A stretch of 64,000 nucleotides of DNA, from contig OX597819.1 of the NCBI GenBank assembly GCA_951406725.2, positions 65,472,001 through 65,536,000 of the forward strand, read 5' to 3'. The stretch comes from Octopus vulgaris (taxonomy: Eukaryota). The translations under genes and the position numbers were made by a program. Position 1 is the stretch's first letter. Each line of letters opens with the position of its first letter. A model generated the notes under the pieces. That model ran no database searches, had not been told where the DNA came from, and saw nothing but the letters and a program-made list of their open reading frames with translations. This document shows positions 1-58,259 of this stretch, in pieces.

Positions 1-59
<59 letters not shown>

Positions 60-94
60 TATATACATATATACATATATATATACACACACAC

Positions 95-132
<38 letters not shown>
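1..132. repeat. (TA)n/(CA)n microsatellite
   Basis: Dinucleotide run seen directly; one of many such runs in the window. Confidence 0.95.
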
Positions 133-134
<2 letters not shown>

Positions 135-799
135 TCGACCTCAGCTCTATTTGACTTTAGAATGTAGCGACGGGCGAAATTCCGCTATTTATAGAGGAAG
201 AAAGGGCGACACAGAGTAGGCAGACAGACTGATTCAGATACAGAGCCTGACAGGTTGGTAGATAGATAGATAAAACCGCATAAACGATATACAATGAATA
301 ATACATGCAGTCATAGGAACGAAAACAAGTGATTGGAAAACAGTAAAAATGCTACACATAAGAATCAACAGCGAAATTTGTGTTATGAAGTATATGGAAA
401 TCAAGAAAAAGTAGAAAATGCATTTTAGATGATGCACAGTATTCTCAACGTTATAAATTGTAGCCATATTTCTAACAGTTCTTTCTCGCTTCCCTCCAAA
501 AAAAAGTAAAATGGAGGAAACACACTTTTGACAATATAATGCAGATATGTACAAGGATTGAATGATCGTAGCTACAACGCCTTTCACCATAGACATGCTT
601 AATTTGTTCTGATTCAGTGATTAAGCAACCAATGAAACTAATAAAACAAATATTTAAATATTCTGTGCCTAAACACTACTAAATATCTGCAGATGATTTC
701 GACTCAGTATGTGCCAACCAGGTCACTGTTATGTAGCTTAATTACTCCAACATTTCACTTCTGGAATAAGGGGAAGCAAAATATAATAGCAGAAGCAGG

Positions 800-1415
800 A
801 AGCGAACTCCTACAATACACTTTGCTACCTCTAATTGTCTAATTATTTTACTTCTCAATCCCCGAGGATTGGCAAAAAGCCCCAACCTATCAAAATCCGT
901 CGTTCATGAGCACCTGGTAAAGCTTGGGTACACAAATCGCTACGATGTTTGGGCACCACATGCGTTGAGTGCGAAGAGCCGTTTGGATCGCATTTCCATC
1001 TGTGATTCGCTTTATACACGGAATGAAAACGCGCATTTTTTAAGGCAAATTGTAACAGGTGATGAGAAATGGATTATCTACCGAAATGTTCAGAGAAAGC
1101 GATCCTGGAGTAAGCGACATGAGCCACACTTAGCCACCCCAAAAGCGAGTCTTCGCCCTAATGAACTCTTGCTTTGTATCTGGTGGGATTGGAAAGGAAT
1201 TCTGTACTATGAGCTTCTCCCAAGTAACCAGACAATTAATTCTGAGAAATACTGCACACAACTGTACGAGTTAAAAGCAGCAATTCAAGAGAACCGTCCA
1301 GAATTGGCCAACAGGAAAGGTGTTTTTTTCAACATGATGATGCAAGACGGCATGTTTCTTTGGGAACCAGACAAAAATTGCTGCAGCTCGACTGGGATAT
1401 GTTACTCCAACCCAA
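800..1415 (+). mobile_element. Decayed mariner (DD34D) transposase, truncated by a microsatellite and SINE
   Basis: Peptides DVWAPHAL (WVPHEL motif), IVTGDEKW and LLCIWWDWKGILYYELL, then a frameshift to QHDDARRHVSLGTRQKLLQLDWDML. Ends before YSPDL. Confidence 0.93.
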
Positions 1416-1416
1416 T

Positions 1417-1487
<71 letters not shown>

Positions 1488-1488
<1 letters not shown>

Positions 1489-1646
1489 GACAGGCTTCTT
1501 CAGTTTTGTTCTACCAAATCCACTCGCAAGGCCTTGGTCGGCCTGGGGCTACAGTAGAAGACACTTGCCGAAATCACCACGCAATGGGATTGAACGTGGA
1601 ACCATAAGGTTGGGAAGTAAGCTTCTTACCACACAGCCACGCCTAT
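1488..1646 (-). mobile_element. SINE family A, head portion
   Basis: Reverse complement of the family A head (A-box TGGCTGTGTGG, B-box GTTCAATCCC). Confidence 0.9.
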
Positions 1647-2531
1647 TTATATTATTTAGCATTTATTGTTTTTTCGTCGGTATTACTTCAAGAAGCTACT
1701 TAACAATGATGACACGGCTAATCAGCAAAATGTACAATATCACAGCCCATTGAATATTCGCATAATTTGGGTACGTGTGTCTCGATTGCAAGCTACGAAA
1801 TTTCGTAATTTAAATTTATTATATATATAATGTGGACTTTAATCGCTTCTAAAAGGGTGTAAATTTACGAAAAGCTTTATTTATATTTTGCACTTTTGTT
1901 AATCAATTTAACATCAGTTCACTTAATGACTATATTCATTTAATCTCTAACACGAAAGATAAATTAATCTATATCATGTATTAATTCAATTTATTTATCT
2001 TTGGTAGTCGAAGTGAATATTATTATGAATTCATTATTATTTACTCTATCTACAACGTACGTCTTGAAGTATTAATTATCGAAATGTATTTAGAGCTGCA
2101 TTAATATTCTTACTTATTCAATGCATCTTATCACTCGAAAACATTTGTATGTATTAGAGCTTTATTATCTATTTATAAAGGATGTGGGTTTGGCAGAGTT
2201 GCTGGAGTATTAGTTTAAATAGCTTACGGTATTTACCTTCATTTCCGTGCATTCTAAGTTCAATTATAGCGAAGATCAGCCCTGCATTTTATCATGTCTG
2301 AAATGACAAAGTAAAATTCTTGTGTTGATGTAATCGGCAAAATCCTTTACAACAAATAACTGGAAATATGCCTCTTACAATCTAATTCTATTTTTAAAAA
2401 TGCACGGGGGCCTCGCAGAATCGATGCTTTTCATTGCGATTTCAAATAATACCCAGTTCAACTTTGCTATTCATCTCCCGAGCTGACATCGTTCTTTATT
2501 TAGAAATAATTACATCTTTTTCATTTACATT

Positions 2532-2702
2532 GGCATAGGAGTGGCTAAGTGGTAAGCAGCTTGCTTACGAACCACATGGTTCCGGGTTCCGTCCCACTGC
2601 GTGGCGTCTTGGGCAAGAGTCTTCTACTATAGCCTCGGGCCCACCAAAGCCTTGTGAGTGGATTTGGTAGGCGGAAACTGAAAGAAGCCCATCGTATATA
2701 TG

Positions 2703-2749
<47 letters not shown>

Positions 2750-2965
2750 TTGTGTTTCTGTGTTTATCACCCCCAACATTGCTTGAAATCCGATGCTGCC
2801 GTGTTTAGGTCCCCGTAACCTAGCGGTTCGGCAAAAAAACGATAGAATAAGTACTACTCTGACAAAGAATAAGTCCTGGGGTCGATTTGCTCGACTAAAT
2901 GCGGTGCTCCAGCATGGCCACAGTCAAATGACGGATACAAGTAAAATAGTAAAAGAGTAAAAGGG
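2532..2965 (+). mobile_element. SINE family A, full length (tRNA-derived head, CTTGGGCAAG core, central TA/TG microsatellite, LINE-like tail)
   Basis: Pol III A/B boxes; matches copies at 37152, 56128 and 63620. Confidence 0.93.
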
Positions 2966-3020
2966 TATTGCTTTGGCTGGGTCACGTCACTTTCTGACAA
3001 AAAGTCTTACGGTATTGAAT

Positions 3021-3235
3021 AAGGCGGAGAGGTGGCAGAATCGTTAACACGCCGTGCAAAAATGCTTAGCCGAATTTCGTCCGTTTTTACGTTCTGATTT
3101 CAAAATCCACCGTGGTCGACTTTACCTTTCATTCATTCGGAGTCGATGAAATAAATGCCAGTTGAGCTTTGGAGACGATTTAATTGACTAGATCTATTTC
3201 CTAAGGTTGCAGGTCACCTGCCTATATTTTTAGCC
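3021..3235 (+). mobile_element. SINE family B
   Basis: AAGGCGG..TGGCAGAATCGTTA head and a GTCGACTTT.CCTTTCAT core shared with many copies. Confidence 0.85.
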
Positions 3236-3689
3236 AGTTATGGAACTGAGTTCAATTCCCACCATAGGTCAAGTTTGCCTTTTATCTTACTATGGATGAT
3301 AAAATAATATACCAGTGAAATACTACTATCATTTCAATTTTATATTTTACCTTGCAGCGAGGTCAGACTTTTATAGATATATTTATATGAATACCAGTAT
3401 CGAGTTGTTAAGAAATGTGGAGTTATTTCAGGAAAATTAGAGGTGACCCAATCCTTCAGAGTGACATGGGACAAGCCGTCAGTTATCGTATCTCTAATTT
3501 AATGTTTCACCTTTATCAAACTGATTTTGCCGCAGTCTCATTGTGTACGCCAAAAGGTCCTTTTGGCTTTTCCAGCGAAAATAAGATGCAAGTTTTAAAC
3601 AGAAAGCGATTTATTCAGTCAATAATATAATTACAGTTTCGTTTCAGTACATTGTGTCATCTTGTTGGCAGATCCAGTGTTCTGTGTTC

Positions 3690-4620
3690 AAAGGGGTTTT
3701 TTTTTTCCTGTCTTTATTGGCGAAAATCTCTTCCAGGTAGATCACAATTGAAAGTCTGTGAATTCAAGGAAATTTGAAGATACCAAAACGGCTGGAGACC
3801 AGAAAGCGCAAGGTCGGGCGAATATGGAGGGTACTGCAAAACTTCCAAGGTCCGAGTAAATTCTGCGGCCTCTGCAAATAGGTATGTGGTCTGGCATTGT
3901 ATTTCATCGCGGTAATGCCTTTAAGATTGGCAAGAAATGGATGCTTCTATTTGATTACTTACTGCATGTAATTTGTTTAGTTGATCACAGTACACATCGA
4001 AATTGGTGGTCCTTGTGTAGGAAAAAGGCTAGTAAAAGACAAAGCCCATGCAATACCACTAAAATGAAAGCATAACCTTCATCGGGTGAAGTCTTGCTTT
4101 GAAGGTTGTAGTGGTGATTCGCCGTGATTCCTCCATGATCGTTTGCGCTTCACATAGGTATAGACGATCTGTGTTTTTCCCTCAGCACTATTCTCTTAAA
4201 AAGAGAATCGTTTTCATTAGTTTTCTGTAAAGAATGACTGATAGAAATTCGTTGAGTGTAGTTAGACTCCTTCACTTGATGTTGGATTGAGACATCGAGC
4301 CTCCCAACGTAACCAAGTTTATGTATATGAATTTTCAACCCTCAATTTGGATATTTATGAAATAACCACGCTCATCTTGGTCACCAAATTGGGTTGGTGA
4401 CGCTGCTGATCTCCGTTGATTGGTGAAACCGAGATGCTTATTGAATGGAAAGTTTTTCTGATCGAAATCTCGAATGCTACCCCAGGAACACACGTTCAGT
4501 AATATCATCCTCTTCGTCCACGACGCACAAATTCCTTCAGGTTTTCGGCTCATTCTTGCCTTTTGTATAAGTGAAAAGCCATGATTTATCGATAATGTTT
4601 GTTTTGAATTTCCATTCTAA
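3690..4620 (-). mobile_element. Decayed mariner transposase
   Basis: Minus-strand fragments: KGKNEPKT (N-terminus), HKLGYVGRLDV, KRKRSW, LHPMKVML, NARPHT, EVLQYPPYSPDLALS. Many stops and frameshifts. Confidence 0.88.
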
Positions 4621-4982
4621 ACATTTTTCTCTTTCTGTATTCCCTAGTGTCATAATTGTCTGAGCTAGTCCCAGAGCTGGTGCGGATGATGGTAATGGTT
4701 GGACTAAGCCTCCTTCTTGCACACATGGACAAATATTGAGAAGGTTTGACGGCGTGCTTCAAATGCTCGCTTCGCAGCTATGTTTTCTCAGGTTTGGTTC
4801 CACTGAGCAACTCCTTGGAAAAAAGTATTCTCTCGTCTTGGTCCAACCAATGCCCTGTGCATAATTTACGGAGACGAAACTATGCATTCAAAAACATATA
4901 CACTCATGTCCACGCACACACCCGTGCTTACACACACATACACACACATACATGCATACATACATATATGTATATGTATGTA

Positions 4983-5058
<76 letters not shown>

Positions 5059-5061
<3 letters not shown>

Positions 5062-5570
5062 TATTATAAAAGGCAGATTTTATCTGCCTCCCTTTGGGAG
5101 TTATACAAATCTACAATATAGGATTTCTTCAATTACAATTTACCTTGCATTTTTAAGAGTACAATGCATCGCGTCATGCCAGATCCAGTTTTTAAAATTT
5201 AAACTCCAATTAAGCAAAATTTACAGAAAACTCACGTTCTGGTGTGTGTGTCAAATGCTTTTCTTAGTCTGGTTTACACCACACGCAAACGCACACACAC
5301 AGTGGGCAACGAATAAAATGAAAGTAATTGACTTACTGTAGTGAGTGATTCTTTCACTCTGCCTCCCACTTCCTCTTTCAACACATAGACACGCAAATAT
5401 ATAAATAAAATTGTAAGCTAACGTGCGTGTGTGTGAGTGGGTGTGTGTGGGTGTGCGCGTGTGTGTGTGTGTGAGGGTGCGTGTGTGTGTGTGTGTGTGT
5501 GCGTGTGCGTGAGTGTGTGACAGGAAAGTTTTTTACGACGAATATAACACCTATATCCAAGTAGCAGAAA
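5059..5570 (+). mobile_element. Possible Helitron-like element, 5' part
   Basis: Begins A|TCTTATTATAAAAG, similar to the Helitron 5' end at 6845. No clear 3' hairpin plus CTAG found. Confidence 0.35.
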
Positions 5571-6050
5571 GATAAGACAGTAAGGTGTGATTTGAGGGAG
5601 ATTTGGCTGCTATTTCTACCATGTCTAGCTGCCATGTAGGGGTCTCCCTCATAGGCTCATACATACATATATACATAGATAAGACAGTAAGGTGTGATTT
5701 GGGGGAAATTTGGCTGCTATTTCTACCAGGTCTAGCTGCCATGTAGGGGTCTCCCTCATAGGCTCATACATACATATATACATAGATAAGACAGTAAGGT
5801 GTGATTTGGGGGAAATTTGGCTGCTATTTCTACCAGGTCTAGCTGCCATGTAGGGGTCTCCCTCATAGGCTCATACATACATATATACATAGATAAGACA
5901 GTAAGGTGTGATTTGGGGGAAATTTGGCTGCTATTTCTACCAGGTCTAGCTACCATGTAGAGGTCCCCCTCATTGGCTCATATATATATACATACATAAG
6001 ACAGTAAGGTGTGATTTGAGGGAGATTTGGCTGCTGTTTCTACCAGGTCT
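5571..6050 (+). repeat. 107-bp tandem repeat, about 4.5 copies
   Basis: Unit GATAAGACAGTAAGGTGTGATTTG...CATACATATATACATA starts at 5571, 5678, 5785, 5892 and about 5996. ORF-track peptides recur at a 107-nt offset. Confidence 0.97.
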
Positions 6051-6120
6051 GTTAGGCCTTCTCATGTAAACTCAAGCTTTCTCATGCCTTGAACATAAGA
6101 CCAAAGCAGAGAATGTATTC

Positions 6121-6370
6121 TTTTATTCTTCTGCTTTTTCCAGCCATTGGTCTGTGGCCATGCTGGGGCAATGCCTTGAAGAATTGTAGTTTAATGAATC
6201 AACTCCAGTTTTATTTTTGTAAGCATTGTACTTATTCTATCTGTTTCCTTTGTCAAACCACTAGGTGACAGGGATGTAAACAAACCAACATTCGTTGTCA
6301 AGCAGTGGTGGAGGACAATCACAAGCACAGACACGCACACACACACACATACATGCATACACATATACAC

Positions 6371-6405
<35 letters not shown>

Positions 6406-6420
6406 TATATGTGTATATAT
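6121..6420 (-). mobile_element. SINE family A, 3' half (diverged)
   Basis: Reverse complement of the CAGCATGGCC tail and GATAGAATAAGTAC, ending in CA/TA repeat. Confidence 0.8.
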
Positions 6421-6423
6421 ATA

Positions 6424-6745
6424 TTGCAGCCTGGAAGGTGTTTGTAAGCCATTTAAGAAACACACAAAAACCGTTACATTCACTTCAACATTTAAATTTA
6501 ATTTGCCAAAATATTTTCGTCGCTTTGAGACCGCGACCTGTTCACTGACAAAAATATCGTGCTAACAGGTCGCAGTCTCAAAGCGACGAAAATAGTTTGA
6601 CAAATTAAATTTAAATTTTGAAGTGAATCTAACGGTTTTTGTGTGTTTCTTAAATGGCTTATAAACACCTTCAACGCTGCAACTGTTTTCGTTCCAGCAC
6701 ACGATCTCAGATCAAGTCACTTGCTATGCAAGTACATCTCTGTAA
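6424..6745. mobile_element. Fold-back Penelope-like terminal element (about 119-bp inverted arms)
   Basis: 6424-6542 is the near-perfect reverse complement of 6564-6682 with a 21-nt loop. Contains a hammerhead motif and is flanked by TA repeats. The Penelope origin is inferred. Confidence 0.75.
6502..6552 (-). ncRNA. Minimal type-I hammerhead ribozyme, G3-C8 variant
   Basis: Minus strand reads UUUGUCA GUGAACA G GUCGC GGUCUCAAA GCGAC GAA AAUAUU U UGGCAAA: 7-bp helix I, 5-bp helix II, palindromic helix III. Confidence 0.7.
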
Positions 6746-6779
6746 CTATATATATATTTATATATATATATATATGTAT

Positions 6780-6844
6780 ATTGGTAAAAACAGTAAGATA
6801 ACAAAAGAAAGAAAGAGACCTCAATATTATGTAAATAGAGGAAA
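6780..6844. mobile_element. Fragment of the 22.4-kb Penelope-like family, cut by the Helitron
   Basis: Reverse-complement match to about 22635-22695 (GTAAGA.AACAAAAGAAAG..AGACCT..TTATGTAAATAGAGGAA). Confidence 0.7.
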
Positions 6845-7239
6845 TCTTTATATATAAAAGTGAGGTTGTGTGTCTGTCTCCAACGATTTAGATTCCTAAC
6901 TACTCCCACATTTTGCGGTGCAGTTTAACCAAAACCGGGTATCTTATAGTCGTGATTCATATCGAGACCGTCTGGGTATTAGCGCGCGTCTACGATGAGT
7001 CTACGGTTTAAAAAAAAATTTACCATCAATTTTTCCCATTTTTAATCCATTTTTGACATATATAAGGGAAGTAACTCTCTAAAATTTATTATTAAATCTC
7101 AGAACGTAAAAAGCTACAGTAACACCCCTCCCCCTTTGTGGTTAGCCATATTGAGATGGCTATTATACTTTACATCTCTAAAAATGCTTATATAATTATT
7201 TCCCTTACAAACCCGAGCAACGCCGGGCGATACTGCTAG
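6845..7239 (+). mobile_element. Non-autonomous Helitron
   Basis: A|TC 5' end, subterminal hairpin CCCGAGCAACGCCGGG, CTAG|T 3' end, no target-site duplication. Second copy at 15385. Confidence 0.88.
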
Positions 7240-7749
7240 TATATATATATATGCAAACACATGCATACGCAAGCTTAAATTCTTATGGGTAGTTTTGTGT
7301 GAGTTGTGTACATTAACATGAGATAGCAGTTCGACAAGAAGACACCGATAGAATATCGGTCCCAAAAGAGAGGGACATAACACATACCAGATTTAAGAAG
7401 TGTTTTAGCGATTATTTTAACGCGACCATAACTGTCAAGGGTGTGCTCTAGAATGGCCGTTATCCAATGGCTGAAATAAATAAAATATATAAGTTAAATA
7501 TATGCACCCATTCGTCCCTGCCTTATTCTTTTTGTATAATTCAAAGCCGTGTAAGTTTATAGAATTCCAAGCCATATACCTTGCTGCAGCTCATATATCA
7601 TTGTCAGGCTTAACTGATATGTCGATAATTTAGCATTACATTTTAAACGCCATTTTAAAAATTAATTCGTCGGAGATATATGTTCAGCAAGTGGTTATAG
7701 ATTATACACTGTATTGAAACCTAAACAGTCTGCTTCTAATAGATTCAAT

Positions 7750-8110
7750 TCAGGTTACTCAGGTTAGGAGAGACGAGTTTTATCAGGTGCTGCTGAAATG
7801 TCTCAAGAAAGGTGATCGAAGTGCAGTACAGGTTTCTGCAGAAGTTTTTATTGAAATAAAACGTAGTGGATGATTGTTATTAATCGGAGTGGATCATCGT
7901 TAAGCAAACGCCGTCTTGAGATAAATATAGTCAACATATGGGCAGGCCAGCCCCTGGATATATTTGAGGAGTAATGAATGCTGATTCGAGAAGTGATGTA
8001 TAGGTGTGATTAGATACCTGTTTATCTATACGACAAATCAGTCCTGCACGACTTCACAATTCGAATGGTGCCGATGATCCCGAGATAAAGGACGTTAGAG
8101 TGACTATGAT
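7750..8110 (-). mobile_element. Highly decayed LINE RT fragment (CR1/Jockey-like)
   Basis: Minus-strand peptides NVLYLGII and LLKYIQGLACPYVDY resemble KYLGI and YK.LVRP.LEY. Confidence 0.4.
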
Positions 8111-9639
8111 ATTATCACGTTAATCCATCTGCCGAAAGAGATCTATAACCACTACCAAGGACTGTCGCAAGGGCTTCGTTTCCCGCAACTAAGAAATTGG
8201 CGGTAGGAAGTGTGATTTAAACTAAAACAAAAGATAGACAGAAAATAATTTTGAACAGCATTTTGTCATTTAATCCACCATTCAGATTTTTTATCTTTTT
8301 TTTTACCAGAAATGAGGAAATTCGAATTCCATCTCTGTGAGATTTGACGCTCAAACGATTCTGGTAAGCTACCAACATAACATTCATCCTTAGCAATTGC
8401 ACAGTGCCGCATATTCGGAGGAAGAAGCTTGCTGAATGAACTGGCCACAGTACTTGATTCATACTTATTACAGCGATCACTAAAACACGAAAGGTAAATC
8501 TAGCCAAGTTCCTGTTTGAACTCAAAACATAAAACGTTCGAATATTGTCTCGTGACTTATTGTCAGACGCACTGACGATTAGGCCATTCCATCACAATTA
8601 AAATGATAATAGAATGAAAGATGTGTTTCTCTGTCTGCCCGTCCGTTACATTGTATCTATCGAACAAGATCATCTTTAAACAGCTTATCCAAAGAAACGA
8701 GGTAAAAACTGTTGGATTTATTTAAGTCATTTATTGAACAACAAGGAAAAATTAAGGTTTGTGTTTATTTTTCTAGCAGCCATTGGAATTGGAATGTAGA
8801 ATGTAAACGTAAAGTGTTGGAAAACAAAGCATTAGACATAGTGTCAGGTGCTCCTATAATTCTTTAAAGATAATAATCCCTGTTTTATTACGATTGAAAG
8901 CCTTCCATCCTACCTTTACCCCCTGCTCACAAGAGCCCTACTTTAAAATTACTTTTTAGACATGCATAACATGTCCAGCAGATTTTGTGTAATCTGGCTC
9001 AATCTATCGACATATTTTTGAGTTGTACTTGTTTGGGAAGTTATATTATATAAGATCGTATCTTGTGACTTCTAAAACAATTAGATCGTGATAGCCATTG
9101 CATTCATCAAATGTATACATAGACTGTTATATTTACTTTTAATTTAATATTTTTTCATAATACTCTACTTTATTAGGTACCAACGTTCTTTGTCGAACAA
9201 ATAATAACGTTTTATTGATTCTCTATTTCACCGTCCTTATAATAAATCTATTTCACTGGTTTTACAACAATGTTGCGGCAGTTTGCTTAAATTTCCATTC
9301 TTGTTTGTAGAGGAATATTGATTTTTCACATAAGCACAAGGTATCAAATTTGGTGTAGGGCTATAGTGATATATAAGAAGATATGGTACCTTATTTTATC
9401 GAGCTGGAAAGCTGAAGAGTAAGGTTGACCTCAATGATTATTTAGTAATATTCAATAACGTTAATTAAGAACCAGCGAGGTGGTAGGACCGGCTAGATAT
9501 AATACCCTAATTTCCCTCTTGTTAGAAAATGATATATTTCACAAAAAGTAATTACATAAAAGTATAATACAATCTTAGACTCACTAAAATTCATCTGCAA
9601 TTCGGTTGATAGAGAATCCGTTTAATACAGAGCTGTCTG

Positions 9640-9870
9640 TTCTCTATGGTGGCCGTAGGGAAATAGGGAGTATGTTGCGGACCGGACTGAAAGGGATAAT
9701 GACTGGAACTTTACACTTTGGCTAAGACCTTTTACAACTTTCACTTGACAAAGAAAGCGCGGGTGTTGAAGGAAATGTAGCTTTCTTTGAAAGGCTGATG
9801 GGAGAAGCGAACATAATCTGACTAAAAAGGTAAAACCTGAGCGTGCACCTGCAAATTAAGGGGAGACTTC
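9640..9870 (-). pseudogene. Decayed ORF of unknown family, paralogous to 11103-11330
   Basis: HAQVLPF*SDYVRFSHQP / CQVKVVKGLSQSVKF / FQSGPQ aligns with the plus-strand peptide at 11.1-11.3 kb. Confidence 0.7.
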
Positions 9871-10159
9871 GAAAGCAACATAATAATTGTAGTGTTATGA
9901 ATACTACTGGGCAGTTAAATACCATCTTTGAGAGAGCGGTGGATAAACTATTTTGCGGTAATTAGTTTAGTTACACCACTTTCTGATTCCAAATAACACA
10001 TGCGCTTTCATAGTTACAGAGTATATGAAGGTGGACAAGCGGAATAAGGACACTAAATGTTCTTCTCGGGGAATTGACTTCAGAAGCACTTTAAAATTTT
10101 GTTTTGTTTATCCTTATTCGGAGTAGTCCTATGTCATAAGGGAAATTATTTTATTCTTT

Positions 10160-10355
10160 CATACTTTTCTTTGTTTCAGTCATTTGGCTACTGTCATGCC
10201 GGAGCACCGCCTTTAGTCGACCACACCAGGACTTATTCTTTGTAAGCCTAGTATTTATACAATCGGTCATTTTGCCGAACCGCAAAGTTACGGAGACCTA
10301 AACACACAAAAATCGGTTGTCAAGCAATAGTAGGATAACACACACACACACACAA
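10160..10355 (-). mobile_element. SINE family A, 3' half
   Basis: Reverse complement of the family A tail up to the CA repeat. Confidence 0.85.
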
Positions 10356-10356
10356 C

Positions 10357-10665
10357 GATTAGCCAGAGAGGATTTTTAAAATGAGAATATCTGAAATAAA
10401 CTCGACTGCTTTCACAAAGGAGAATACTAAAAGTGAACCTGACCGCTCTAAAAAGTTAAGAGAAAAATAACGGAAAACTAATCCAAAATCACTGTCCGGT
10501 ACCGGATGGGTCCCAAAATCAGACCGGTTCGTGCCAGTCACAAGGCCAAATACCCCTGAAAACTTCATTTGAATCCATTCAGTGGTTCTTGAGATATCTT
10601 TCCACGGACAAACAAATACGACTGAAAACAATACCTCCGCCTTCGCTAAGGCGAAAGTAATAATA
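10357..10665 (-). mobile_element. Helentron-associated (HINE-like) non-autonomous element
   Basis: Minus strand starts TATTACTTTCGCCTTAGCGAAGGCGGAGGTATTGTTTTC (terminal hairpin), then GTTTGTCCGT, TGGATTCAAATGAAGTTTTCAGG and an internal CCGGTACCGG palindrome. Confidence 0.65.
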
Positions 10666-10729
10666 ATAGTAATAGACCAAACCTGAGCTTTGTTTCTATA
10701 ATGATAGTAATAAAATATTGGCTTGGTGA

Positions 10730-11535
10730 AGCACATGGAATACATGCAGTTGGGCTACTCGTTAGACACGGCGAAGCCCATTCGTAAATTCTTGGATGGT
10801 CACAGATGGAGCCTTTGTATCCCGAAGTAAACCCAACTAAATTCCATCGTTGGATAGATGGATTCTTGAAATGATAATGATATTTCGTTTCTTATCCACT
10901 AAAATTCACAAAATTTTGTGGTGATCAAGACGCCACAACGTGGGATTTCATGAAGGCATGGTTAGAAAGAAGAACAATAGTAATAATTCATCCCACCAAC
11001 GATTAATTTCCCAATGGAGGGTCAATTCTGAGAAGTCACTAACTGCAATCTCCGAAAACCTCGTTCATCCTGACCACAGTAACAAACACCTTCCCTGTGA
11101 TGTCTTCCCCCAATCAACAAGCGCAAATTTTACGGGTTTGCTCACACTCTGTTCATTTTTCTCGCCAACCTTCCCAGGAATTAACTGGAAAATTGCAGTT
11201 ATGTCTCCACCCTCAAATTCATTGTCAAGTGAAACTTGTAAGAGGGCTTGGCCAAAGAGTAACGTACATGCCATCAACTTTTCAATCAGGTCCACAGCAA
11301 AAGCCGTTTCGCTACAGCCGCCAGAGATAAGCATTCCTTGTTCTTCACAGTCAAAGGAAGGCAGAGTCATGATCCTCACAATCGACTCGGTTGATCTCTT
11401 GATACACACTACATGTGACAACAAGATCGGTAATGCTCCGGCACTGGATGAGTACGTAGGGAACTGCTTCGTCACTCTGCGCGCAGCTCGGGAAGCTGTC
11501 GGCACCTTCGTGTCTATACACCGTTTTGGATATTC
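10730..11535 (+). pseudogene. Decayed coding region, possibly LTR-retrotransposon gag/protease or another endogenised element
   Basis: Non-repetitive, higher-GC block. One frame gives FHRWIDGF, TTWDFMKAWLERR, VHFSRQPSQE and CQVKLVRGLGQRV with in-frame stops. Another gives GRVMILTIDSV...VTLRAA. The family assignment is weak. Confidence 0.45.
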
Positions 11536-12289
11536 AATAAAAAAGAACCATATATATACTACTACAATACAGGCTTTTTCCATGAACATAACCATGTTGC
11601 TTTCATATTTAAAAACAATTTCTCTTATCTATTTTCGGGATGCCTAAATAATTTTAAATTTTTTTGTCTCTTTTCGACACCAACAAATATTTTCATCTCT
11701 CCTTACATCCTCCAGTATTTCATCACCCTTCATGTTCAGGTTATAACTCATATTTTACTTCCGTTCGCTTTCTGCTTTTATACTTAACCCTGTTTTATAG
11801 AGTTTCTTTGCATGACACCTACGTCAAGGAAACAAAAAAGACAAAAAGAAAGATATGGTAGTAATAACAGAAAATAATTACATAAAAATACAAAAAGTGG
11901 TAATAATTCTCTCACTGTTCTAAATATATATCGCAAAATACCAAAACTATTCGTTACTAGAAAACTTGAAAATAAACTCGGAAGATTAATGGGAAAAGAA
12001 AGTAAAAAAGACACGTAAAGGTATAATGCATCACACATGAACAACAACACAAAAAAATAATAATAGGATGTAAATATGCTGATGATAATAATAAACGATG
12101 AAAAATTTCTATGATGTGGATGATGAAGAATTAATAAAGTATATGTATGAAAAAAATTAAATAAAATAACAAGAAAACGTACAGAATATTAATGAAAATT
12201 AATAGCCTACCTTACGCGTAAGTAGAAGCAGTTATGATAGCAAAAATAATATTCGCAACAAGAGCAAAAATAATAACAACAATAATAAT

Positions 12290-12725
12290 TTTTACTATTA
12301 AAGGTACAACGCCTGAAATTTTGAGGGAGGAGTTAAGTCGATTAAATCGACTCCAGTGTATAACTGGTACTTAATTTATCGACTCCGGAAGGATGAAAGA
12401 AAAGGTCGACCTCGGCAGAATTTCACCTCAGAATGTAGAGGCAGACGAAATTGTGCCCGGCATGCCAAAGATCCTGTCAGCTCACTGCTTTTAATGAGAA
12501 TAGTAAAAATTATTTCTACTCGAAGCACAAGCTCTCAAATTTGGGGGAAGGAATTAAGTCGATTTCATCGACCCCAGTGCGTAAGAGGTACATAATTTAT
12601 CGACCCCGAAAAGATGATAGGCAAAGCCGGCCTGGGCAGAATTTCAACTCAGAACGTAGCGACAGACGAAATACCTCTAAGCATTTCGCCTGACGTGCTA
12701 ACAATCATGCTAGCTCACCACCTTA
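12290..12725 (-). mobile_element. Two tandem SINE family B copies
   Basis: Two reverse-complement B cores, about 12290-12490 and 12520-12725. Confidence 0.85.
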
Positions 12726-12744
12726 ATAATAATAATAATAATAA

Positions 12745-12775
<31 letters not shown>

Positions 12776-12808
12776 AAGAAGAAGAAGAAGAAGAAGAACA
12801 AGAACAAG

Positions 12809-12845
<37 letters not shown>

Positions 12846-12850
12846 TCAAC

Positions 12851-12909
<59 letters not shown>

Positions 12910-13037
12910 CAACAACAACAACAAAAGGAGTAGGATGAGAAGAAGAAGAAGAAGAAGAAGAAGAAGAAGAAGAAGAAGAAGAAGAAGAAGAAGAAGAAGA
13001 AGAAGAAGAAGAAGAAGAAGAAGAAGAAGAAGAAGAT
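12724..13037. repeat. Compound (TAA)/(GAA)/(CAA) trinucleotide array
   Basis: Seen directly. Confidence 0.95.
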
Positions 13038-13039
13038 AC

Positions 13040-13472
13040 TTGTAGACTAAAAGATGTGTTCCCACTGATAAAAATATAACTGTAAAGGAATTTTACAAAT
13101 TAAGTAAAGTTAAGGACCTGGTAATGGAAATACAAAAGATGTCGCATCTTAAAGCGATAACTGTTCCTGTTATTGTGAATGCCCTTGATATGATAAGAAA
13201 GGGATGTCAGAAACATCTAGATAGTATCCCAGGAGAACCATGTCTTAGAGAAATCCAAAAGATTGTGCTGACAAGAACTGCCCATATCTTTAGAAAAACA
13301 TTGTCAGTTTAAATGTATATGTTGTATTACATGAAGATATTTCGCTACTGCTCCTACCAATTCGCCTCCCCAAGCTTTCAGTCATTCTGTAGCATCTTTT
13401 ATCCAGTACTCGCCCTAGGACGCTGGATGTGTCTCGGCAGGTGATTGTAACAAACATGCAGATTAAAAGTAA
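13040..13472 (+). mobile_element. R4/Dong-type non-LTR 3' end (RLE endonuclease C-terminus plus 3'UTR)
   Basis: KLSKVKDLVMEIQKMSHLKAITVPVIVNALDMI...EIQKIVLTRTAHIFRKTLSV*, followed by a TGA/TAA tail. Confidence 0.88.
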
Positions 13473-13502
13473 ATGATGCTGATGATGATGATGATGAGGA
13501 GG

Positions 13503-13534
<32 letters not shown>

Positions 13535-13538
13535 AATG

Positions 13539-13598
<60 letters not shown>

Positions 13599-13665
13599 GC
13601 AAGAAATGGAAGAAAATTTGAAAGAAGAAAAAAAAAGTAATAATAATAATAATAATAATAATAGC

Positions 13666-13756
<91 letters not shown>

Positions 13757-13757
<1 letters not shown>

Positions 13758-14263
13758 GACAAAGAACATGCCTCCTCATTGATATGACTGTCCCAATCGA
13801 TATAAAAGTATCTGTCAAGACCTACCAAAAACTGAGCAAATATAAAGATCTTGAAATAGAAATCAGCAAAATGTAGAAGCTGAAGACTAAAACAATACCT
13901 GTTGTCATAGGTGCCCTGGGAATGATAGCGAAAGGGACTGATTGCTACCTAACTCAGATACCAGGAAACCCCAAAATGGCAGAAATTCAAAAGATAGTGC
14001 TCATAGGAACTGCTCATATCCTACGCAAAATACTCTCTATGTAATCCCAAGGTTTAAAACAAACTTTTTATTTATTTATTTTTTTTTATTTAATTTTTTT
14101 TTTTTTTTATGTATTAGACATTCACTAGTACAACACCAAAAAAAAAAGGAGAAAAAAAAAACCCAAATATATGGCACAGAACTTCCAGCCTGTTGTCTCT
14201 TGAGGTCTCTGGGTGAGACTTGGAGCCAACTTGTACAGACATAAAGCAAAAGTCAAACATAGA
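13757..14263 (+). mobile_element. R4/Dong-type non-LTR 3' end
   Basis: CLLIDMTVPIDIKVSVKTYQKLSKYKDLEIEISKM*KLKTKTIPVVIGALGMI...GTAHILRKILSM*. (TAA)n on both sides. Confidence 0.92.
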
Positions 14264-14329
14264 ATAATAATAATAATAATAATAACGACACGCCACCCCA
14301 CCAGCACAAAGGAGCAATAAACGATGCAA

Positions 14330-15190
14330 TAAAAAGTTGCGTGAAAATAGCTGATGTCGAAAAATAATTGGTAATGCAGTATGGCTAATGTAAGTGAAGG
14401 AAGAAAAAATGAGCGAAAAGCAGCCAGATCTAAGACGAACAAGTATATTAATCAGTATGTTAGGGAAAATGCCGAATTGGAAGAGCCCTGGATCAGATTT
14501 AGTTGAAGGGTACTGGCTAAAAAATTCAGTAGTTTACATGGGAAGCTGAGGGAACAACTTCTGGTTTGCCTAAATGGAGGAATAATACCAGATAGCATGA
14601 TTAGAGGGCGGAAAATATTCTTTGAAAAAGAAAAGAGCGAAGGTAAAACAAATAACAGCTATAGACCAATCACTTGCTTACCATTAGTGTGGAAGCTGTT
14701 AACAGGGATGCTGTCAGAAAGCATTTACGAGCACCTTGTGAAATAGAATTTACGACCAGAAGAATAAAAAGGTTGCCGGAAGAAGGTTAAGGGAACGCAT
14801 GATCTATTATACCTAGACAAAGCAATTCTAAACGAAGTAAAAGCTAGAAAGAAAAATCTAACGATAACAGGGATATGTTGCAGGAATGACTATGAAATGA
14901 AAGTTAATATCAAAACAGGAATTTTCCAGAGAGAACTCCTTGTCCCTTTTAATATTTATCTTATGTTTGATCCCCCTCTGTTTACGATTAAGGAGGGTAG
15001 AGGCAGGCTATCGGGTTCAGAAATAGTAACGGAAAAATTAACCATTTACTCTACGAGTATGATCTGAAGATTTTTAGCAAGAATGAAAAAAAAGATGGAT
15101 TCCTTAATACAGATTCTGACACTCTTCAGCGAAGATATAGGCATGGAATTTGACATAGATAAGTGTGCAATGTTCGTCAAGAGAAGGGGA
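14330..15190 (+). mobile_element. R4/Dong-type RT remnant
   Basis: [63 protein letters not shown]. Confidence 0.88.
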
Positions 15191-15270
15191 AGATACTCAA
15201 CAGTTCTCTCTAGCGTGCAAGGAGTCCTATGATGGATGCCGCATGTGTTTAAATGTATACTGTATTTATT

Positions 15271-15923
<653 letters not shown>

Positions 15924-15926
15924 TGT

Positions 15927-16345
15927 TGTATCTGGGGAGAGTCATATTCTTTTTGTGTCTTATAATTTAACACACTCACCGGTAAAATTTCCACTTATTT
16001 CATATTTTTTTATTTTCCTAAAATTTTCGTTGCGTCTTGCAACCTTTCCAATAGTATTGGAGAAAACATTGGAGGACAGATTGGTTTGGAGCGTTGTCGC
16101 CTGAGTGGTGCAAAGTTCCACCTGAGAAAACCTATTGCGTCTTGCAAACTTTTCAACAGTCACGACTACTGAAAAGGTTGCAAGACGCAACGAAAATTTA
16201 GGAAAATAAGTGATAATTTTACCGGTGTGTGTGTTAAATTATAAGGCACAATAAGAAAATGACTCTCCCCAGACACAATACAATATGCTTCAACACAAGA
16301 ACTCACATAAAGTATCTTGCAAACCAAATCCCAGAACGAAATATA
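15927..16345. mobile_element. Fold-back Penelope-like terminal element
   Basis: 15927-16055 is inverted relative to about 16165-16278, with an extra short inverted copy at 16135-16161. Related pieces lie at about 36295-36500, 42880-42930 and 45290-45330. Confidence 0.7.
16166..16201 (+). ncRNA. Hammerhead-like motif of the U3-A8 family (this copy reads C3/A8 and is probably defective)
   Basis: CUA CUGAAAA G GUUGC AAGAC GCAAC GAAA AUU UAG. Other copies read UUGAAAA. Confidence 0.45.
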
Positions 16346-17025
16346 TATATATATATTGCTAGAAGAGAAAGAAGATGGGGCGGTCAAATCGGATTGTCAT
16401 TACTCGATTAATCGCTAATAAATTTGTGTTAAAGAACATTGATAAGGACAAATTCTCTAATAATACAATCACGCAGAGCAGAGGCCACAATAATGAAGGA
16501 AATTGTGGGATAATGTAGTCAGAACAACGTCGACAAACAGCTTTGAGAGAAGCGGATAAAGTGCAGCATGTGCAAAAACTATAGCAGAAACATCAATTAC
16601 TGCAAGTGTAATAAAGCAAGTGGTAATCAAGAACAACGTGAGTAGCTGAGAAAAATGCGTCAGTATGGCTCTAGTCTTGATGGGTTAAACAAACAAAGGA
16701 ACTAAAAACACCTGACAAAAACAAACAGCGGCGGTAATGATAGCAAAAATAATGGATATGGGAAGCAGCGAAGTCAACAACAACCACAATCACAGCAATA
16801 ACAACAACAGCAACAATAACAACAACAAAAGACTAACAGATGTTCCTAGAGGTATCTGGTCTATTTACGGATTGGTTGATTATATATATGTACGGATGGA
16901 CAAAGGTGCTGGGAAGATTTTTGTGCGTTAATAGCTGATATTATTCCATGGGGCGAGACAGGGTGAGTGATAGAAAGAGGGTGGGTGTTAGAGAAAGGGT
17001 ATCCGCAATCACCAACATCATTCAT

Positions 17026-17372
17026 ATGGTTCCAGGTTCAGTCCCACTGCGTGGCACCTTGGGCAAGTGTCTTCTACCGTAGCCTCGAGCCGACCAAAGC
17101 CTTGTGAGTGGATTTGGTGGACAGAAACTGAAAGAAGCCCGTCGTATATATGTATATATATATATATATGCGTGTGTATATATGTATATATGTTTGTCCC
17201 CCAACATCACTTGACAACGGATGCTGTAATTTAACAGTTCGGCAAAAGAGACCGATAGAATAAGTACTAGGCTTACAAAGAATAAGTCCTGGGGTCGATT
17301 ACTTCGACCAAAGGCGGTGCTCCAGCATGGACGCAGGCAAATGACTGAAACAAATAAAGAGTAAAGAGTAAA
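17026..17372 (+). mobile_element. SINE family A, 5' truncated
   Basis: Runs from the B-box to the GTAAAGA tail. Confidence 0.9.
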
Positions 17373-18819
17373 CCAATACTGGTCCTTCTACGCGATAATT
17401 TGAAATGCGTGAAATAGCAGCCAAATTTCAGTTATATTGCACCCCTCCATACTTAGAAAATGACTATTTGATTGATGTGGTTCTCGGTTACCAGTACAGC
17501 GGAAAAGTACTACATGGCTTTGAAAGCATTTGAAGGCAGCTCTTCTTGAAAAGTTCTTAACATCAGCAAAAATAGCTGCCTTTATCACTACAAAGCGAGC
17601 AGTAGTGTTATGAAATAACCTTCAATATGGTAACTGAAACACCCTATATGGTAACATGTAGTATTAGAAATAGCCAAAGATCTTCTGAACCACACACTAA
17701 AGTTACTGTTCTCAAATTATGCGACGTAGAATTTGGGAGACGAAATACTAATGGCTTTAGAAAATGTTTACTGATGTTTTAAGCGTCTTGAAAAATCATA
17801 CTTTTCACAATATTGTTATACACAAATATTAATAAACGGAGGTAAGAAACACTTTCTTCCGTGTTTCGTTTTTTTTTTTCCAAAATTTCTAACATTAAAA
17901 TATTTATTTTATGAAAATTTCTTTGCGAGATGCATCAGTAATTTTAAAGTTTGCGTGTGAACTGAAACATTAATTCTAAATTTGATCTCCAGGACGCCAC
18001 AATTGGAAGAAGCTGTGCTCTATCATTTATTAAAAAAAACAAACAGAAGACTAGATGACATTAACGCGATTCCTTTTGATCAATACTCTGCTTGATCAGT
18101 GATGACCTTGGGCTAAACGACAACAGCTATCAATCATACAAACTAATAAAGATTGTTGCATGCCATTGATCTATCACGATGTGCTGGAATAAAGCAATCA
18201 AATTTTACTCAAGTATTTTGCCATCTTCATTAAAAAAGAAAAAAATCCGAGATCCTATTGCGGAGTGTTGTCAACATACTCTAGAAACTCAAGAATGTGG
18301 AATTGTCTCTCCTCATAATCCTTTCTGATCTGGGCTGACTTGGGACTAAACATCGTCGATAAGAATAATTCGTCATAAAAGATGTTGTAGAATCTTTGTA
18401 CCGTCTCTGCACTTTAATCAAAAAATATGCTGTATACAATCTTTTTGTCACTTTGTCACCCTGCTCGCCTCTCTGCCAACACAATAACCAATATTAACGA
18501 TTGGCAGAACAAGCACTCTTGTTAATACCTTTACCATGTTAGTCACTCCTATCATGACTACAACCATTAAAGCTGATGCCATCAACACCACCACCATGAA
18601 GACTACTATATCTAATAGGATGAACGGGTTTATTAAATACTTTCGTCAGATTCATTAGAGTGTCAAGTAAAACTGACTTGCTGTATTAAGCTGGTACACT
18701 ATACGATCTGTGTTCAAATCATGCGAGATTAATTTTAGTTCTTATCCTTCCGATGATAATAAAATAAACTTCTAGTTAAATATCTGGTCTTCTTCCCGAT
18801 TTTACGTAATTATTTTTAC

Positions 18820-21164
18820 CATTGTTACAACCACCAACAGCACTAACAACCACATCCCTAACACCACCAGCACAAACAACCCCACCACAACCACCTATAA
18901 CACAAATGTCAACGCCATCATGGACCCACCACCCCAAGCACCACCGTTGCTGTTAGTATAATTCAACATTACCAACATCGCCACCACGGCCACAGCCAAT
19001 ACTATCACCATAACCATTAACATAGACGCCAACACAGTATAACCACCAATACCTTTAACATCAATGTTATTGTTACCTCAATTACAACAATCAATACCAC
19101 TACCAGCAACGCTCACTTTAACATGTTCAAGCTCCACCATTTTAATCAACATTTTTATCAGAACTACAATAAATTAACACATACGTCACCACCACCACCA
19201 TTACAACCACAATCGCTACAATCGCCGTCAATACAACCATAGTCACTCCTTCACCATAGAATTACTCATCAATAATCTATTATCCAACACCATCACCAGC
19301 TTAGTTTTATCTAACTAGTACACTAATCCTTAATCACTCTATCATCACAAGTCACGAGGGAATCTCTATGAGGTCACTCAATTTACTAAAAATAACAGCC
19401 AAATTACCACCGAATCGTATCCTACAGTTGTTTGTAACGGTCGTGTCTGATTATATGGCTCTGCATTCCTTGCACATCGGAAAACAGTGAGATGGTCACG
19501 GGTTCAATCCATTCGATCGTATAATTGTTGATTCATATCTGGCCTTGGGCTAAACAGCAGCAACAGCAACAGCGGCAGCAGCAGCGGTGACAGCAACAGA
19601 GGCAGCAGCAGCAGCGATAGTGGTAGCAACAATGGCAGCGGGAACGACATCAAATGCAATAACCTTGATAATCACCATAAAACATCAAAGATGAAATATA
19701 TGTACCAAAGCAAACGCTGCCTCGTCTCTTCCTCCACCGCTTCCAATCAACATCCCTCAGCGGGAACCCTTACCACTCACACATTCACAACTATATCTGC
19801 AACCTCCACCGCCACCCCACAACTGCAGGCCACCACAACAAAAAGCGCCATCAATGAACTATCAATTGCCACCCACTGCCAGCATCTTTCGCTACCATCG
19901 CGACAACCACTGCCGCTGAAACAACAACCACCACCACCACCACTGCCGAACCACTGCAAATAATTAACTGACAACGCCCGATCCGCCACCAACGCCAGCT
20001 CTGTCGACACCGCCACCGTCTTCACCACGAATCCTCAACTGACATTTCCCTGCCAATATCTACACCCATCCACCCACCCATACCATCCATCTCCACCGTG
20101 CCATCAGGTACCGTTCTCACAACTGCCGCCGACACTGCCATCGCCACAACAGCCACCACCACAGCTACCATCAACACCACCACCATATCATCACCATGAC
20201 CATCATCATAATCATCACTATCTCACCATCATCATCATCACCGCCACCAACAACATCATCATCATTATCACCACCACCACCATCATCATCATTATCATCA
20301 TCATTACCACCACCACTATCATCATCACCATCATTACCATCGTCAGCAGCATCACTACCATCATCATCGACAGCGGCAGAACCGCTAGCAGCAGCAGGAG
20401 CATCAGTGCCAGCATTAGCGCTACAACCGTCACCACCATTGCCGCTATCAGCACCACAACCCGGCATCACCACCTTCATGTACTACCACCACGACTACGA
20501 CATTTACACCCAAGAACATCCCCACATTCACCTCCACCACCGTCTTCTCCGCCCTCATCAATATCCCCACCACAACCGCTACAATCTCCATACAATCACG
20601 ACCACCACCACCATCTTCACTGGAACTACCACCATCACCATCAGCGTCACTGCCATCATCACCACTCCGTGACTACTAATTAATGGCTGCCGCTACCACT
20701 GCCACCACCCAACCTTACATCTCACCATCCAAGCAACATTACCATCAAAACCACAGCTATCACCATCTCAATGAAAGCACCCCCTAACTCAACACTAGCG
20801 CCAATACTATCACCGGTACTGCCATCATGCAGCACACCACCACCACGAACATGATCGCCGTAATCACTATTGACGCTGCCGCCACCTTCGCCGCTTTCAC
20901 CACCACCACCACCATCTGTTATCAGCTGCCAACTTTTTCCCCACCAACTGTAACATCAACATCGCGTCATGTTTCCAGCATCCACAAAATATACTCCGAC
21001 GCCACCAACACTGCCGTCATTCACAACCCCCCCACCGCCAGTGCCTGCACCACCTCCACCACCACCACCGACACCCACAAATTATCAATTGCCAACAAAT
21101 CTCCGCCATCACCACCAACACCACCCACCCCAGCAGCAGCAACAACAACAAAATCCGTAGCTTT

Positions 21165-58224: not shown

Positions 58225-58259
58225 GTTTTACGTTTCGAGCAAAGCTCTTCTTCAGAAAC
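58225..58259 (-). ncRNA. Canonical minimal type-I hammerhead ribozyme within a probable Penelope-like terminus (about 58140-58345)
   Basis: Minus strand reads GUUU CUGAAGA A GAGC UUU GCUC GAA ACGU A AAAC. All core residues present; palindromic ACGU helix III. Confidence 0.82.

Follow-up and report, generated by a model that had tools for sequence, protein, structure and literature searches.

The motif on the minus strand at 6552-6502 of the window, the whole stretch of 64,000 nucleotides of Octopus vulgaris DNA analyzed here, is probably the minimal hammerhead of a Penelope-like element (PLE) family in which the core pair C3-G8 reads G3-C8 family-wide. On this reading, which we consider the likely one, the hammerhead would be weakly self-cleaving in full-length tandem elements, by forming a dimer or with the help of a protein, and the copy in the window would be an inert, truncated passenger of a Helitron.

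Read directly from the sequence, the motif has the layout of a minimal type I hammerhead, all its parts lying on the minus strand. The 5' strand of helix I (6552-6546) is followed by a core reading G3 U4 G5 A6 A7 C8 A9, with G3 at 6545, C8 at 6540 and A9 at 6539, and by an extra G at 6538 placed between A9 and G10.1. Helix II pairs 6537-6533 with 6523-6519 and leads to GAAA at 6518-6515, to a palindromic helix III, AAUAUU, at 6515-6510, to U17 at 6509 and to the 3' strand of helix I at 6508-6502; helix I has 7 bp, one of them a G-U pair, and helix II has 5 bp. The fold given in the original prediction (helices I and II, palindromic helix III, core and UUU cleavage triplet) was thus read as claimed, the extra G being an addition to it, and the predicted cut fell at the same position, between 6509 and 6508. 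U4 G5 A6, A9, GAAA, the pairs A15.1-U16.1 and G10.1-C11.1 and an NUH triplet are all in place, the 3-8 pair is Watson-Crick (G3-C8), and both the extra nucleotide between 9 and 10.1 and the palindromic helix III are present. As position 3 is G and position 8 is C, the literal core CUGANGA is absent, and the motif is a hammerhead variant, not a member of the consensus.

The minimum-energy fold of these 51 nt contains helices I and II (z -2.1; 7 of 200 shuffles were equally stable). A descriptor admitting any Watson-Crick 3-8 pair matched the window twice, at 6502-6552 and at 58225-58259, and gave no match in 100 first-order resamples of the window, so that the motif at 6552-6502 is not a product of chance. 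The other match, on the minus strand, is a second hammerhead, minimal, with a canonical C3-G8 pair and from another family. Searches with Rfam over 1-20000 and over 6490-6562 yielded no hammerhead match. Position 3 is also the centre of a quasi-palindrome, TCA-N-TGA (6542-6548), where a small inversion could yield a C to G change.

The motif is contained whole in a 5'-truncated copy of the Penelope pLTR (6424..6563, minus strand) that is identical at 115 of 127 aligned bases to the pLTR of a tandem family element, L113, and that terminates at the first 3' end-point of the family, shared with dispersed copies. Next to it, on the plus strand, an inverted pLTR copy (6564..6745; 162 of 180 aligned bases as in L113) begins at core A6 and has no functional motif; it includes the start codon of the family ORF at 6654 and a tail of roughly 60 nt. 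From 6654 the copy translates into a match to the N-terminus of that ORF, of which the window contains only the first codons. The two copies build an inverted repeat (6424..6682) whose 119-bp arms, 6424-6542 and 6564-6682, are 93% complementary and separated by a 21-nt spacer. Inverted, 5'-truncated insertions with a tail have been described for PLEs (PMC8557442), and inverted PLE insertions have been explained by two starts of reverse transcription (PMC11167929). We infer that the insertion in the window is a 5'-truncated PLE copy plus an inverted second copy, and that a (TA)n tract inside the Helitron was its target.

This anatomy bears on a claim that helix I had been kept by compensatory change. 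UGACAAA is indeed found in the opposite arm, as had been stated, but that arm starts at A6 and has neither the 5' strand of helix I nor G3-U4-G5. The A-U pair became G-U by a change on one side only, and what was taken for an opposite arm is a duplicate in inverted orientation with no pairing partner, so the notion of a compensatory helix I fails. A-U is the usual state in the family: among 217 distinct copies this pair is A-U in 143, G-U in 46 (27 of them Helitron-borne) and something else in 28.

In a read-through minus-strand transcript the complementary arm would be made first, and the helices of the motif are predicted at near-zero probability (about 1e-23 for helix II), whereas for a transcript starting within the spacer the predicted probabilities are 0.69 for helix II and 0.49 for helix I. 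The RNA ends that had been expected at 6509/6508 are accordingly not foreseen by the folding model for a read-through transcript, in which the motif is sequestered. The window copy is thus predicted to be inert, its motif buried in a 119-bp hairpin; it is cargo and in itself matters little.

The carrier is a non-autonomous element of Helitron type of about 2.18 kb (5059..7239, plus strand), located in an (AT)n tract. It opens with TC (5059..5060), and its 3' end (7212..7239) is made of a short GC-rich hairpin at 7212-7227 and a terminal CTAG at 7236-7239, after which comes a T. The sequence common to its copies spans about 5059 to 7240 and includes a tandem array of 107-bp units (5570..6050, plus strand), of which there are 4.5 copies here and a different number in other carrier copies. 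CTAG was followed by T at all 59 carrier 3' ends compared, 9 of which were joined head-to-tail; at the 5' ends, A stood before 40 of 48 and CTAG before 7. A 5' TC, a 3' CTRR, a subterminal hairpin, an A|T target and head-to-tail joins, the marks looked for in a Helitron, were therefore all found.

The junction peculiar to the arrangement of a PLE within this Helitron occurs 639 times in the genome, and the spread of the Helitron would have inserted the PLE piece, as DNA, at more than 600 sites. The best 40 of 2,285 genome candidates were 98-100% identical across the motif stretch, and the motif itself was identical in all 30 Helitron-borne loci retrieved; as recent DNA copying accounts for this near-identity, it is uninformative about selection on the RNA. 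An empty Helitron, one having no PLE piece, was not found among the first 30 marker loci, since 28 carry the piece and neither of the remaining 2 is clearly an empty site.

The home of the motif is a different element. Searching the genome with a pattern for the swapped core returned 5,470 places, and its reversed control none. Most copies in a sample of 20 loci were free of the Helitron and had two alternative end-points about 60 nt apart; these Helitron-free copies usually adjoin (TA)n and often form inverted pairs. Longer copies of the family extend upstream into a GIY-YIG endonuclease and an RT. The RT/GIY-YIG ORF is followed on its own strand, after about 1 kb, by the G3-C8 motif in 9 of 10 top loci and in all 9 loci with a long ORF; among loci of an older lineage the motif pattern was matched in only 2 of 11. 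One family protein (P0001) has a YVDD motif, a GIY-YIG match and a C-x3-C-x2-C linker, with RT and, C-terminally, GIY-YIG in one ORF; Pfam GIY-YIG scored above its cut-off in one of the two family proteins tested, protein homologs of the ORF carry RT names, and the closest database protein is an Octopus vulgaris entry that matches this genome at 100%. The family is also present in contigs from three other organisms.

L113 is a pLTR-ORF-pLTR tandem with a frameshifted ORF and, on one strand, two G3-C8 motifs at a distance of 4,261 nt. The ORF of the family starts 3' of the motif (window position 6654), which makes the motif non-coding, and codon constraint was ruled out as the cause of the swap on the same ground. 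Location of the motif in the pLTR, partial tandem pLTRs, an inverted truncated 5' copy, a tail and a (TA)n target were all found, as for a PLE. Full-length pLTRs also contain a motif that looks like a branch point and an acceptor and stops about 15 nt short of helix I (L113:5195-5225; also L054-L083; 443 exact matches), an arrangement resembling Drosophila virilis Penelope, in which an intron end adjoins helix I (PMC4209133).

Relatives of the family connect the swapped core with ordinary hammerheads. Canonical C3-G8 cores in a homologous frame with an identical helix II were matched 3 times and in the same frame 20 times, mostly in an older family whose pLTR is homologous, and a young sister element, whose protein is 55% identical, keeps the C3-G8 frame. 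One copy of the swapped-core family (L137:1498-1548) has unlike arms, the first with a canonical C3-G8 and its inverted counterpart with G3-C8. Further families in the genome contain U3-A8 motifs, again in a homologous frame (14 matches, L317-L330). A3-U8 was not found as a separate family, 8 of its 9 matches being scattered members of the G3-C8 family. The PLE family of the young sister element is tandem and full-length, with frames of up to about 1,312 codons and dozens of near-identical long-ORF copies; its motif (L294:6385-6440, minus strand; L298:6409-6456) has C3-G8, A9 changed to C and mismatches in helix I.

When 17 representatives were aligned, positions 3 and 8 read C-G in 9, U-A in 5, G-C in 2 and unpaired in 1, a column that is partly circular as the rows were picked by patterns that fix those letters. 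Other helix columns were likewise fixed by the search patterns, and one row is shortened by its coordinates. Two columns were free to vary, and both contain double changes: the fourth pair of helix II is A-U in 6 rows, G-C in 6 and unpaired in 5, and 15.2-16.2 of helix III is G-C in 10, A-U in 4, G-U in 1 and unpaired in 2.

A single context pattern with 5,685 matches in the family showed G3-C8 in 5,235 (92%), G3 with another base at 8 in 303 and a base other than G at 3 in 147. The double change is therefore no decay of one copy, as had been argued, and GUGAACA recurs in other copies as anticipated; relatives with C3-G8 share the frame. In four runs of family contigs no core position changed at 3% or more among the 40 rows listed, out of 41. 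The further proposition that selection kept the pair is weakened by 176 copies whose core is left unpaired as G3/G8, a tenfold surplus over the strand-symmetric change to C3 (17), and by the sister family lacking A9. With 17, reversions to C3 at the quasi-palindrome are not in excess, which speaks for no present hot spot.

The G3/G8 copies are not scattered singletons. One subtype numbers 36 copies, 28 of them on one contig (C16), and the same subtype with C8 has 197 copies; 20 of the G3/G8 loci on that contig (L244-L263) have separate flanks and PLE ends, and ORF remnants occur in 7. The cluster lies at about 1.7-9.3 Mb and 55.6 Mb, where ORF copies of the older lineage gather too. In another loop type a further variant is common to 9 of 12 G8 copies. 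Since the G3/G8 copies have separate flanks and shared variants, a core predicted to be dead was copied, and at least some of these copies are retrotransposed. Moreover, one arm with C8 and one with G8 were seen in 4 of 26 two-armed insertions (L189, L214, L225 and L397, from loci chosen by pattern and hence biased), which suggests that a single event used two distinct RNAs as templates.

A tree of the endonuclease region (35 family rows and 3 outgroup rows, three loci being entered twice) separates two lineages: in the youngest, G3-C8 is fixed (support 71), and in an older one both G8 and C8 occur (support 96); with an outgroup branch of 0.73 it gives no order for G8 and C8. The pLTR tree is poorly resolved; its 230 copies are what remained of 251 rows after 21, largely redundant copies of the Helitron, had been set aside. 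The G3/G8 state may be a surviving intermediate or a repeated reversion.

The activity we propose draws on published mutants. In the PAc hammerhead of Anolis Poseidon the C3G/G8C double mutant is partly active and needs protein, and the single mutants are inactive (PMC11167929); the G3/G8 state corresponds to the C3G single mutant. By analogy, we infer that the swapped G3-C8 pair would keep partial activity. Transcription through the two pLTRs of a tandem element would let its two motifs pair their palindromes, and the paired motifs would cut after U17 and so trim the tandem precursor RNA, as the account in PMC4209133 leads one to expect; to judge from the published mutants, this trimming is probably not essential for transposition. 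In the energy model the double-hammerhead dimer gains only 0.6 kcal/mol over two monomers. From the patterns described above, cutting looks useful at most and not essential.

That the motif descends from a hammerhead and no longer cuts, drift in a master copy having fixed G3 and C8, with a fold that, if kept at all, serves as a protein-binding or splicing-related structure of the 5'-UTR, is in our estimate a doubtful alternative that nevertheless deserves weight. The G3/G8 copies spread, the sister family lacking A9 has its dozens of near-identical long-ORF copies, and canonical hammerheads are absent from the thriving Naiad elements (PMC8557442). In addition, the hammerhead of the lizard PLE is reported to be dispensable for insertion in vitro, its mutants inserting unaffected, and no reads ended at its cut site (PMC11167929). 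Drift does not sit well, however, with the fact that, of the states with one change or two, the paired one alone is predominant (92%), as well as being the fixed state of the youngest lineage, nor with a motif whose other core letters, both helices and palindrome stay intact while loop II differs between subfamilies; the core positions listed for the four runs of family contigs point the same way. We thus hold to a weakly cutting hammerhead as the more probable state of full-length tandems.

Two other readings fare worse. It is very improbable that the window copy has a role of its own, as ribozyme or as regulatory RNA, in the service of host or Helitron, although the motif is identical in all 30 Helitron-borne loci and a transcript started in the spacer would form helices II and I: the Helitron copies are 98-100% identical throughout, so that the identity reflects youth and not selection, the carrier appears to move as DNA, a minus-strand transcript would make the complementary arm first and bury the motif, and the carrier element holds no partner motif on the same strand. 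A chance look-alike within a foldback repeat or MITE, or a hairpin of microRNA type, has a negligible probability. The 259-bp hairpin is very stable and Rfam gave microRNA matches, though weak ones (43 bits against a cut-off of 91); against this stand the empty resamples, the identity of the hairpin arms as pLTR copies of an RT/GIY-YIG element and the existence of canonical homologs. A MITE or microRNA hairpin was ruled out by the linkage to the ORF and the homologous canonical cores. The preferred reading remains that of a PLE hammerhead, with the window copy as cargo.

A bolder proposal goes beyond it, and we make it tentatively from sequence comparison, as a possibility that we would not bet on: that the family has a functional G3-C8 hammerhead of natural origin, which CUGANGA descriptors overlook in over 5,000 copies, and that this core was reached from C3-G8 via a cleavage-dead G3/G8 step surviving as copied sub-lineages and mixed-arm insertions. 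If true, the full compensatory path of a ribozyme core would be found in one genome and would offer a natural test of the purpose of PLE hammerheads.

Natural covariation at 3-8 has been published as U3-A8 (PMC3088659; PMC4209133), and G3-C8 is mentioned as a laboratory variant (PMC3884650). In the literature searched no natural G3-C8 hammerhead was found, only laboratory variants; Lunse et al. 2017 (RNA Biol 14:1499), outside that scope, may bear on the matter. New here are the carriage by a Helitron, the copied G3/G8 sub-lineages and the sister family lacking A9. Hammerhead searches based on CUGANGA would miss the whole G3-C8 family, and PLEs scored as having no hammerhead may hide swapped cores. 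Moreover, related elements of known copy number in one genome carry cores with C3-G8, U3-A8, G3-C8 or an unpaired G3/G8 and cores without A9, a natural panel suited to the question of whether cutting matters for transposition.

Compared with known systems, the carrier shares with the non-autonomous Helitrons described in PMC4778049 the 5' TC, a 3' CTAG preceded at short distance by a hairpin, A and T as the letters flanking the insertion, head-to-tail joins and captured foreign DNA. The family resembles the EN+ PLEs of Neptune/Nematis type, as presented in PMC8557442, in the order of RT and then GIY-YIG, in CCHH-like residues and in the linker cysteines; the CX2-5CxxC linker given there as the mark of Neptune/Nematis is present. 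Partial tandems, an inverted 5'-truncated copy, a tail and (TA)n targets are shared with EN+ PLEs as well, whereas their tail is of 30-40 nt as opposed to about 60 nt here, and they have DKG in place of our DKS.

As for the ribozyme, the minimal hammerheads of PLEs treated in PMC4209133 share with ours the type I layout, the extra nucleotide after A9, G10.1-C11.1 and the tiny palindromic helix III, together with location in the pLTR, thousands of solo copies and pairs on opposite strands. They differ in their 3-8 pair, which is C-G or U-A (U3-A8 in Schistosoma Cercyon) and not G-C, and in the extra nucleotide, which is A, C or U in the published consensus and G here; the copy in the window is, unlike them, borne by a Helitron. 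Finally, the ORF of PAc begins inside stem II (PMC11167929), in contrast to the start 3' of the motif in our family, and the C3G/G8C mutant of PAc carries the identical swap, but there it was made in the laboratory, whereas in this octopus family it is the natural majority state.
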